DNA of 37,727 nucleotides from a virus (Duplodnaviria > Heunggongvirae > Uroviricota > Caudoviricetes), in IMG/VR virus record IMGVR_UViG_2909288124_000007, positions 1-37,727 of that record. One strand, 5' to 3'. Numbering within the stretch: the stretch's first letter is position 1; each line of letters begins with the position of its first letter. The notes beneath the pieces were generated by a model. The model was not told where the DNA came from. It saw nothing but the letters and a program-made list of their open reading frames with translations, and made no database searches. Below, one piece after another: positions 11,239 to 12,214 of the stretch. The position numbers and the translations under genes are program-made.

Positions 11239-11891
11239 TGAGTAATAAATATTGCCAGGCGCTGGTGGAGCTGCGGAACAAACCAGCCCATGAACTGAAG
11301 GAAGTGGGCGATCAGTGGCGCACGCCGGATAACATTTTCTGGGGAATTAACACCCTGTTTGGCCCGTTTGTTCTGGATCTGTTCACTGATGGTGATAACG
11401 CCAAATGTGCCGCTTATTACACTGCGGAAGACAACGCGCTGGCGCATGACTGGTCAGAACGTCTTGCGGAGCTTAAAGGGGCTGCCTTTGGTAATCCCCC
11501 ATACAGCCGCGCCAGTCAGCATGAAGGGCAATACATCACCGGCATGCGTTACATCATGAAGCATGCCAGTGCCATGCGTGATAAGGGCGGACGCTATGTT
11601 TTCCTGATCAAAGCTGCCACCAGCGAAGTGTGGTGGCCGGAAGATGCAGATCATATTGCTTTTATTCGCGGGCGTATTGGTTTTGAACTGCCTGCCTGGT
11701 TTATCCCGAAGGACGAGAAGCAGGTGCCGACAGGCGCTTTCTTCGCTGGTGCTATTGCTGTTTTCGACAAGACCTGGAAGGGACCGGCAATCAGCTACAT
11801 CGGGCGCGATGAACTTGAGGCATGTGGTGAGGCGTTTCTGGCGCAGGTTCGCCAGCAGGCAGAAAAACTGGTCAGGGAGATGGCGGCATGA
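11238..11891 (+). CDS. phage N6-adenine DNA methyltransferase (Dam-type, NPPY motif)
   Basis: Catalytic motif FGNPPYS present; ATG at 11238 overlaps upstream stop (TAATG); no adjacent restriction endonuclease candidate. Confidence 0.8.
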   Translation: MSNKYCQALVELRNKPAHELKEVGDQWRTPDNIFWGINTLFGPFVLDLFTDGDNAKCAAYYTAEDNALAHDWSERLAELKGAAFGNPPYSRASQHEGQYITGMRYIMKHASAMRDKGGRYVFLIKAATSEVWWPEDADHIAFIRGRIGFELPAWFIPKDEKQVPTGAFFAGAIAVFDKTWKGPAISYIGRDELEACGEAFLAQVRQQAEKLVREMAA

Positions 11892-12214
11892 CGACGTTAA
11901 CTCAATGCCAGCAGCAGGTGCTGGATATGCTGATTTCTTATCAGAAAGAACGTGGCTTCCCGCCAACCAATCAGGAGGTGGCAACCATGCTGGGATACCG
12001 TTCGGTGAATGCAGCGGTGGAGCATCTTCGCGCACTGGAGAAAAAAGGCGTCATCACGATAAAGCGTGGCGTGGCCCGGGGGATAACGCTTCATACCGCG
12101 GTGAAGGACGACGACAGCGAGGCGGTCGGGATTATCCGCGCACTGCTTGCCGGTGAGGAAAACGCAAGGCTGCGTGCAACCCACTGGTTACATGAGAGGG
12201 ACCTGAAAGTATGA
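11888..12214 (+). CDS. LexA N-terminal DNA-binding-domain-like protein lacking the S24 protease domain
   Basis: MTTLTQCQQQVLDMLISYQKERGFPPTNQEVATMLGYRSVNAAVEHLRALEKKGVITIKRGVARGITL closely parallels the LexA winged-helix domain ([68 protein letters not shown], from memory); only 108 aa. Confidence 0.7.
   Translation: MTTLTQCQQQVLDMLISYQKERGFPPTNQEVATMLGYRSVNAAVEHLRALEKKGVITIKRGVARGITLHTAVKDDDSEAVGIIRALLAGEENARLRATHWLHERDLKV

Follow-up and report, generated by a model that had tools for sequence, protein, structure and literature searches.

The window, by which we mean the whole stretch of 37,727 nucleotides that was analysed, is a lambdoid-type prophage. It comprises an integrase gene (386-1609), an S24-type CI repressor gene on the minus strand (7310-7984) and a Cro-like gene (8075-8275), after which the genes follow in the order CII-like, Ash-family, HTH_36/DnaD-like replication, PerC-family, Dam, mini-LexA, RusA, KilA-N, DUF968 and Q. 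The Q antiterminator gene lies at 14440-15192 and is followed on its 3' side by a terminator-like hairpin (15300-15321). The gene of interest, which we call mini-LexA, occupies positions 11888-12214 of the plus strand and encodes 108 residues with a LexA-type head and a helical tail, and without an S24 domain (PF01726, 2.9e-19; phrog_362, 3.8e-59). An earlier, sequence-only reading of this DNA had proposed an open reading frame with exactly this extent, strand and length, and it is present as such in the window sequence. Among 47 alleles from the clade of the window, 43 distinct synonymous substitutions were counted against 12 non-synonymous ones, with a normalised ratio of 0.09. The mini-LexA gene is thus under strong purifying selection, and the open reading frame is a real gene.

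The 5' neighbour of mini-LexA encodes a phage Dam-type N6-adenine methyltransferase (11238-11891, plus strand; PF05869, 1.1e-45; TIGR01712, 1.7e-76). Its start was placed at 11238 from annotated homologues of 654 nt, the longest open reading frame beginning at 11205. The 3' neighbour encodes a RusA Holliday-junction resolvase (12211-12600, plus strand; PF05866, 3.9e-15). Reading the sequence at the two junctions revealed an ATGA overlap at 11888-11891, which combines the Dam stop with the mini-LexA start, and a second ATGA overlap at 12211-12214, which combines the RusA start with the mini-LexA stop, both on the plus strand. The translational coupling to Dam and RusA that had been claimed for this gene is borne out by these overlaps. 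A consensus promoter scan of the plus strand between 7950 and 15300 called no promoter in front of mini-LexA, its sole call on that strand lying downstream of the gene at 12601-12628. Given this result and the established position of the gene in the rightward operon, mini-LexA is a delayed-early product; it should stay silent in the lysogen and be produced after inactivation of CI. A search with PADLOC gave no meaningful match, and membership of a defence system is therefore unsupported.

The head of the protein, residues 1 to 70 (11888-12097, plus strand), is a winged helix-turn-helix. In the AlphaFold2 model, which has a mean pLDDT of 84.4, it comprises helices at residues 6-22, 28-35 and 40-52 and strands at residues 56-58 and 66-68. 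The PF01726 (LexA_DNA_bind) match covers all 65 positions of the Pfam model. Comparison of residues 1-90 with residues 1-86 of E. coli LexA by BLASTP gave 43% identity with an E value of 1e-21, the alignment being gapless over residues 1-70, and a phmmer search of the PDB matched every LexA chain at about 1e-15, with a figure of 6e-16. Foldseek superimposed the model on chain B of a LexA-DNA complex (3jso_B, E 1.2e-6) with an rmsd of 1.0 Å over 67-68 residues and 50% identity. The LexA likeness of residues 1-70 is far beyond chance, and the fold of the head is established. The pairwise alignment with host LexA that the sequence-only reading had called for thus gave clear identity, and the predicted structure is the LexA-like winged helix on which that reading depended. 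It had also described the protein as aligning along its length with LexA; this is accurate for residues 1-70 and fails for residues 75-103, which form a hairpin specific to the family.

No match to the S24 domain (PF00717) was found in mini-LexA, whose sequence stops at residue 108. The LexA equivalog model TIGR00498 scored 70.6 bits, below its cut-off of 110.95, and was aligned over model positions 1-91 of 203 only. These two results agree with the earlier claim that the S24 autocleavage domain is missing: the protein has no C-terminal S24 peptidase domain and no Ser/Lys dyad. Since the protease domain is missing, mini-LexA cannot respond to RecA*. The BLASTP alignment places A88-G89 of mini-LexA opposite A84-G85 of LexA. 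The possibility that this pair is a vestigial cleavage site was considered and rejected, because the AG is replaced in relatives (by ANE, VGE and others); the segment is also predicted to be helical. Mini-LexA therefore fails on the protease domain, on the cleavage site and on the curated score cut-off, and it is not a LexA. When it is set beside E. coli LexA (PDB 1lea, 1jhh, 3jso), the winged-helix fold is common to both, with about 50% identity over the domain, whereas the S24 domain, the Ser/Lys dyad, the Ala-Gly cleavage site, the C-terminal-domain dimer and the inactivation triggered by RecA* belong to LexA only.

Residues 69-74, which have low pLDDT, form a flexible linker to the tail. 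The tail is a two-helix hairpin of residues 75 to 103 (12110-12196, plus strand), with helices at 75-88 and 93-103 predicted at a pLDDT of about 90, and it has no counterpart in LexA. Among 128 distinct family proteins, the hydrophobic residues at positions 80, 82, 83, 86 and 87 of the first helix and 93, 97, 98, 100 and 101 of the second are near-invariant, and R94 is conserved too. The same hairpin is predicted for a family member that is 44% identical to the window protein, and conservation of the tail extends down to identities of 38-50%. An exhaustive profile search revealed relatives of 105-135 residues, at 38-53% identity, that retain the tail (P0123, P0126, P0129, P0132, P0139, P0164, P0172, P0218 and P0248), and its conservation is thus a well-established property of the family. 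Each helix harbors two hydrophobic stripes, forming a surface broader than the packing of the hairpin alone requires. From the model and this pattern of conservation we infer that the tail would most likely form a four-helix-bundle dimer, standing in for the dimerisation role of S24.

The recognition helix comprises residues 40-52 (VNAAVEHLRALEK; 12005-12043, plus strand) with S39 in front, as positioned by the gapless alignment with E. coli LexA. In the window protein S39, N41, A42 and E45 are the same as in LexA, and two positions are changed, P40V and E44V; four of the five contact residues of LexA helix III are retained, according to the published list of LexA DNA-contact residues (PMC3091678). 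We compared 128 distinct family proteins with 74 genuine full-length LexA sequences from gamma- and beta-proteobacteria, the latter being host lexA genes recovered in a scan of genome contigs. Residues R7, T27, R28, S39, N41, A42, A43, E45, H46, K53, S63 and R64 are invariant in the 74 LexA sequences, and E44 is kept in 72 of them. In the family, S39, N41, H46 and K53 are invariant, A42 is found in 124 proteins, and R64 and G65 are each found in 127. By contrast with genuine LexA, position 28 is never arginine in the 128 proteins, position 44 is never glutamate, and S63 is mostly replaced by alanine. E45 has become alanine or leucine in 35 of them. The window protein itself carries C7 in place of the LexA R7, together with N28, V40, V44, E45 and A63. 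The DNA interface has thus been remodelled, with R28, E44 and S63 lost, position 45 variable and, in the window, a cysteine at position 7. LexA and the window protein share S39, N41, A42, E45, H46, K53, R64 and G65, and mini-LexA is further distinguished from LexA by the lost R28, E44 and S63 and by the hairpin tail.

Copies of the 327-nt mini-LexA gene are carried by 2232 of the 5426 complete E. coli genomes, nearly always at 95% identity or more, and are annotated as 'LexA family transcriptional regulator'. The exact window protein is present under the same name on at least 1000 contigs. The gene is carried by phages SfV (orf42, 'unknown'), SfII, SfIV and cdtI, by mEp460 ('LexA DNA binding domain protein') and by many Stx2a and Stx2c phages. 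The match to phrog_362 ('transcriptional repressor') aligns residues 1-108 to positions 1-106 of 106, and mini-LexA is a member of this annotated group, PHROG 362 or 'LexA family transcriptional regulator'. A search of the literature returned no functional, binding or genetic study of this enterobacterial mini-LexA family; where PMC11893012 uses the term 'LexA-like', the S24 domain of CI is meant and not mini-LexA. By annotation, mini-LexA is thus already in the databases.

We searched the window for SOS boxes. CTGT-N8-ACAG with at most one mismatch occurs at 17 sites, against 12 ± 3.2 expected, which is no enrichment. The sole perfect box, at 8970, lies inside the Ash-family open reading frame and is compatible with chance. 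No convincing enrichment was observed for CTGT/ACAG half-sites at spacings of 0-14 in both orientations across the window, and no SOS box lies upstream of mini-LexA there. An SOS-like box, CTGAAATAATAAACAG, is located at 15601-15616 (no strand assigned). This is a candidate site only; it fits CTG-W10-CAG but has CTGA in place of CTGT. It is the sole CTG-W10-CAG in the window, lies 64 nt upstream of the open reading frame at 15680 and shares sequence with a promoter predicted there (TCAACA-17-AATAAT, plus an upstream TG); the same site is found in 6 related loci.

The mini-LexA family comprises about 11 clades with 40-65% mutual identity, and the box survey was extended to 207 sequences, consisting of 206 loci and the window (1.7 Mb). 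Perfect CTG-W10-CAG boxes were observed 63 times, in 55 of the 206 loci, against about 0.4 by a rough estimate of chance. An unbiased enumeration of palindromes around the family genes ranked ACTGT-N8-ACAGT first, in 8 of 11 clades, and TACTG-N10-CAGTA second, in 7 of 11, whereas shuffled sequences reach at most 4-5 clades. In the five clades whose gene is preceded by a small open reading frame, a same-strand CTGT-N8-ACAG lies 300-2500 nt upstream in 29 of 31 loci (P0139, 7/7; P0218, 1/1; L181, 4/4; L182, 15/17; L198, 2/2). The upstream box is absent from all 176 loci of the six clades that share the context type of the window. The boxes of L182 and L012 come after an intrinsic terminator, and the unit thus starts afresh there; promoter hexamers, TTGACC-15 nt-TATACT, were read by eye in L182 and were not called by the consensus scanner. 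The units of these sister clades often begin with a DinI homologue (PF06183, 1e-21), and in some loci a phage RecA gene (2.6e-130) with SOS boxes in front is located near the family gene. The sequence of the dinI-type box is TACTGTTTATTTATACAGTA. An SOS-box-driven expression context is therefore established for the sister clades, in which mini-LexA appears, from gene order and box positions, to be part of an SOS-controlled cluster of SOS-modulating genes. Of the circumstantial evidence for a role connected with SOS, this cluster is the strongest.

The co-occurrence with SOS boxes was also considered as proof of the mini-LexA target, and as such it is weakened by a control in which a gene of the family accompanied the strong SOS boxes of only 5 among 120 phage loci. 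SOS boxes are common in phages, and the co-occurrence may thus simply reflect control by host LexA. Moreover, sub-lineages with E45 and with L45 lie behind the same upstream box, which argues that the box tracks host LexA and not the phage protein. The boxes of the sister clades certainly fit host LexA; that mini-LexA might bind them too is a proposal.

Tentatively, and as a reading that we would place just short of probable, we propose that mini-LexA is a RecA-insensitive, tail-dimerised LexA head that represses SOS-type palindromes. The hairpin would replace the S24 dimerisation and cleavage domain, and mini-LexA would thereby most likely be a dimer. It would be made only after the lytic start, typically when host LexA and the CI of the phage have already been eliminated through SOS induction. 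We infer that it would then bind palindromes of LexA-like half-sites, most probably SOS-type boxes, and that its effect there would be repression, the bound promoters being held shut independently of RecA*. Occupancy of SOS boxes is plausible from the residues that the head retains, from the recurrence of the SOS-box palindrome across clades and from the boxes upstream of the gene in the five sister clades. The lost R28, E44 and S63, the lack of box enrichment in the window and the precedent of GIL01 gp6, a similarly diverged LexA-derived domain with a different site, speak against it. The genes affected would be those of the host SOS regulon and any with an SOS box on its own or on co-resident prophages.

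Two comparisons are relevant to this repressor model. The N-terminal cleavage fragment of LexA (LexA 1-84) has the same domain content as mini-LexA. Unlike mini-LexA, it is a cleavage product with an exposed C-terminal VAA, whereas mini-LexA has a dedicated gene and an added helical module, and is without the C-terminal VAA. Neher et al. are said to have found in 2003 that the LexA N-terminal fragment retains residual operator binding and repression, and that ClpXP clears it. If ClpXP is needed to clear the fragment, a stable dimeric form of it should repress. Damping of SOS by a phage is itself plausible, since phages encode SOS down-regulators; AriS of the Listeria phage phi10403S acts in this way through an ANT/KilAC domain (PMC9043618), and GIL01 gp7 binds LexA itself (PMC4551915). 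When their temperate phages are induced, these proteins dampen or alter the SOS response of the host, which is the outcome proposed for mini-LexA, but their folds and mechanisms are unrelated to it.

If SOS boxes were held shut regardless of RecA*, the extent and duration of the SOS response would be altered after prophage induction. This would affect about two fifths of complete E. coli genomes, including those with Stx2-, cdt- and Shigella serotype-converting phages, with consequences for the release of toxin, for the rivalry between prophages that share a host and for SOS-dependent mutagenesis during antibiotic exposure. Such a protein would moreover represent the second independently evolved re-use of the LexA head by a phage, after GIL01 gp6, and would mean that a small helical hairpin can replace S24 as an oligomerisation module.

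A more specific form of this proposal, which we consider possible if rather doubtful, is that mini-LexA is an SOS 'reset' factor: uncleavable, self-dimerising and made on induction only, it would re-repress LexA promoters while RecA* is still active. Expression would come from pR in the window and, in the sister clades, from SOS-box promoters beside DinI-like and RecA genes. Host SOS functions would then be shut down, and in polylysogens competing elements would have their LexA-controlled antirepressors and bacteriocins silenced. Since about 41% of complete E. coli genomes carry the gene, such a factor would be a common but concealed influence on SOS dynamics, on how Stx phages are induced and on the mutagenesis that antibiotics trigger.

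The main rival to SOS-box repression draws on GIL01 gp6, a truncated LexA homologue of a Bacillus thuringiensis tectivirus (PMC6182141). gp6 shows 44% identity to the host LexA domain, has its own palindrome, GaCACAnnTGTGaC, and activates the late promoter P3 (PMC6182141). Like mini-LexA, it is phage-encoded, contains the LexA DNA-binding domain only and is expressed early in the lytic cycle. Mini-LexA may likewise be a transcription factor that serves the phage alone: it would recognise an operator of its own, activate or repress a promoter of the phage and have no direct effect on the SOS regulon. Apart from its interesting ancestry, there would then be nothing unusual about it as a phage regulator. 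We consider this reading somewhat unlikely. Besides the precedent of gp6, the family-wide loss of R28, E44 and S63 argues for it, drifted specificity would predict that position 45 varies between sub-lineages, as is seen, and the PHROG annotation is the generic 'transcriptional repressor'. However, no alternative conserved palindrome emerged: the half-site search in the window at spacings 0-14 gave no enrichment, the top-ranked palindrome across clades is the SOS box, and a search for clade-specific palindromes in two large clades yielded only GC-rich ones within conserved coding sequence. A gp6-like activator is furthermore not needed in the window, as the Q antiterminator already controls the late genes.

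The likeness to gp6 is also limited in structure and ancestry. gp6 has been described as a bare winged helix with three helices and a wing only, whereas mini-LexA, compared here with that published description, carries the conserved hairpin at residues 75-103. Mini-LexA differs too in its genomic setting, a lambdoid nin-type operon whose late control depends on Q, and in having sister clades with an SOS-box-driven expression context. A tblastn search of 50,697 phage records with the window protein, at E values up to 1e-3, matched 63 records. Among the 40 matches listed of these 63 there was no GIL01-type or Bacillus phage, and those listed have enterobacterial hosts or are two uncultured phages. 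The two proteins are thus probably independent derivations, and the gp6-like alternative gains nothing from common descent in the matches listed.

The genes surrounding the family point to another alternative, in which mini-LexA is an accessory DNA-binding subunit that guides RusA, or the methyltransferase next to it, on DNA or modulates its activity, and has no transcriptional role. We performed a neighbourhood analysis of 207 loci using purpose-built HMMs. At 171 of the 207 loci a RusA gene adjoins the family gene or overlaps with it, RusA lies at most 650 nt downstream in 8 of the 11 clades, and two very different RusA sequence types are found after family genes. Methyltransferases of three unrelated families precede the gene in five clades. 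Together with the translational coupling of the window gene on both sides, these associations favour the accessory subunit. Nevertheless we regard it as improbable. Clades L181, L182 and L198 have no RusA at all among these loci, and their tail is unchanged; the tail is present with or without RusA downstream, and the idea that it is a RusA-binding element was therefore rejected. The 5' neighbour varies between clades and may be a Dam, C5 or D12 methylase, but also a replication protein or a member of a family of small open reading frames of 75-101 residues. Dam coupling was thus rejected as a feature of the family, and it is local to the clade of the window. The linkage to Dam and RusA noted earlier is therefore correct for the window; for the family at large, Dam is not a general partner and RusA is frequent but not universal. 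In lambdoid nin-type regions, gene order is positionally conserved without implying physical interaction, and it is no sign of contact here. Finally, the domain is of the classical repressor type that reads DNA sequence, and its base-contact residues are invariant or nearly so, which argues for reading DNA as a regulator and against an accessory subunit.

Most improbable of all is that mini-LexA poisons or modifies host LexA, forming mixed dimers or acting as a RecA* decoy that alters LexA cleavage, as the sequence-only reading had suggested in the form of non-cleavable heterodimers: residues 71-90 align weakly to the linker and cleavage-site region of LexA, but in LexA both dimerisation and contact with RecA* are functions of the C-terminal domain (1jhh, 3jso, 8trg), which mini-LexA lacks and to which its tail is unrelated, so that heterodimers are unsupported, and the aligned AG is replaced in relatives within a segment that is helical and not the strand-loop of LexA.

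Further genes were observed around the family. One 'UmuD-like' neighbour has no Pfam match and gave only a 39-residue BLAST match to a UmuD sequence. In most of the contexts inspected, DUF968 and then a Q-type antiterminator lie downstream of the family gene. In several mini-LexA clades, a Rha/ANT(KilAC) protein is encoded two genes downstream.

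The open reading frame (ORF) of the S24-type CI repressor has a perfect SOS box of the form CTGT-W8-ACAG within it or adjoining it in two divergent immunity types. Such boxes were observed in L013 (446-461), L044 (1095), L046 (1111), L047 (1096), L003 (838), L107 (205), L115 (432) and L121 (501), where L-numbers designate loci or clades among the 206 compared loci that carry relatives of mini-LexA. The box is found within the minus-strand CI ORF in L003, L044, L046, L047 and L121, apparently where the linker joining the HTH domain to the S24 domain is encoded. In the CI-ORF boxes, both arms and the all-A/T spacer are conserved whereas the flanks are divergent, which suggests that the DNA sequence itself is under selection, for instance if LexA controls cI or acts within it. 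The CI gene of the window (7310-7984, minus strand) lacks a CTGT-W8-ACAG box of the kind observed in the CI genes of other loci.

A further box, TACTGTAAAAATAAACAGTG, lies about 10 nt inside the ORF of a late N6/N4 DNA methylase, downstream of Q, and is kept across phages with differing flanks. It occurs in L002 (phage mEp460) at 14487-14502, in an ORF starting at 14477, in L012 at 8741, in an ORF starting at 8731, in L175 at 7436 and in about 12 more loci.

One sub-branch, comprising L178 to L199 and L206, harbors a cluster rich in SOS boxes around mini-LexA, with examples at 3322-4527 in L182, at 1637 and 2122 in L189, and at 2839 in L195. In this cluster, mini-LexA is flanked by an 85-101-aa ORF and a 67-aa ORF, a phage RecA is preceded by a double box, and a DinI homologue is encoded. 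The cluster also comprises a protein of 109-125 aa that aligns with UmuD from the N-terminus of UmuD' onwards (GFPSPA-DY-EQ) and is devoid of the GDSM motif of the catalytic serine. The match has an E-value of 5e-8 across 39 residues, against a single UmuD reference sequence, and a Pfam search with this protein returned no family.

The only CTG-W10-CAG sequence in the window is CTGAAATAATAAACAG (15601-15616), a candidate SOS-like site in which one arm departs from CTGT. A predicted promoter with an upstream TG, TCAACA-17-AATAAT, overlaps this site, which is also present in six related loci and is followed 64 nt downstream by a 128-aa ORF at 15680, putatively the opening gene of the lysis cassette. 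A perfect CTGT-N8-ACAG, CTGTAAGTAACCACAG, is localized at 8970-8985 within the Ash-family ORF (8867-9703); its spacer is not A/T-rich and the box count is compatible with chance.

The RusA genes directly following mini-LexA genes are of two sequence types, very different from each other, as seen when L008 (6608-6979) and L012 (6360-6737) are compared with the window (12211-12600); they differ from the start, with MKLILPFPPSVNTYWR in one type and MKAYSITPMGKPRMTRAD in the other. Two genes upstream of mini-LexA, the window encodes a PerC-family protein (10744-11238; PF06069, 7.8e-09), a homologue of which is named yfdN by PGAP. PerC/Pch-type proteins are activators of virulence genes in EPEC and EHEC. 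In several clades, RusA or mini-LexA is followed by a gene for an antirepressor-like protein (L003, 6722-7441; L005, 6732-7448; L202, 725-1456), a position occupied in the window by a KilA-N protein (12620-13429). The L003 and L005 proteins combine Rha and ANT/KilAC domains according to Pfam. Down-regulation of the SOS response has been reported for the ANT/KilAC domain of Listeria AriS (PMC9043618).

Our profile search for mini-LexA relatives revealed many proteins of 140-220 aa (P0130, P0131, P0150, P0153, P0156, P0159 and P0162) in which the LexA DNA-binding domain occurs twice in tandem and the S24 domain is lacking; these proteins would be single-chain pseudo-dimers. Protease-free LexA heads appear to have evolved repeatedly.

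Elsewhere in the window, a 417-aa ORF directly after the integrase (1782-3035) gave no match in a Pfam search, and a PAPS-reductase-like protein (PF01507, 1.5e-08) is encoded at 3856-4851 on the minus strand. The Dam gene is labelled "phosphoadenosine phosphosulfate reductase" in some RefSeq phage records, which looks like an annotation transferred from a fused PHROG (phrog_33262).
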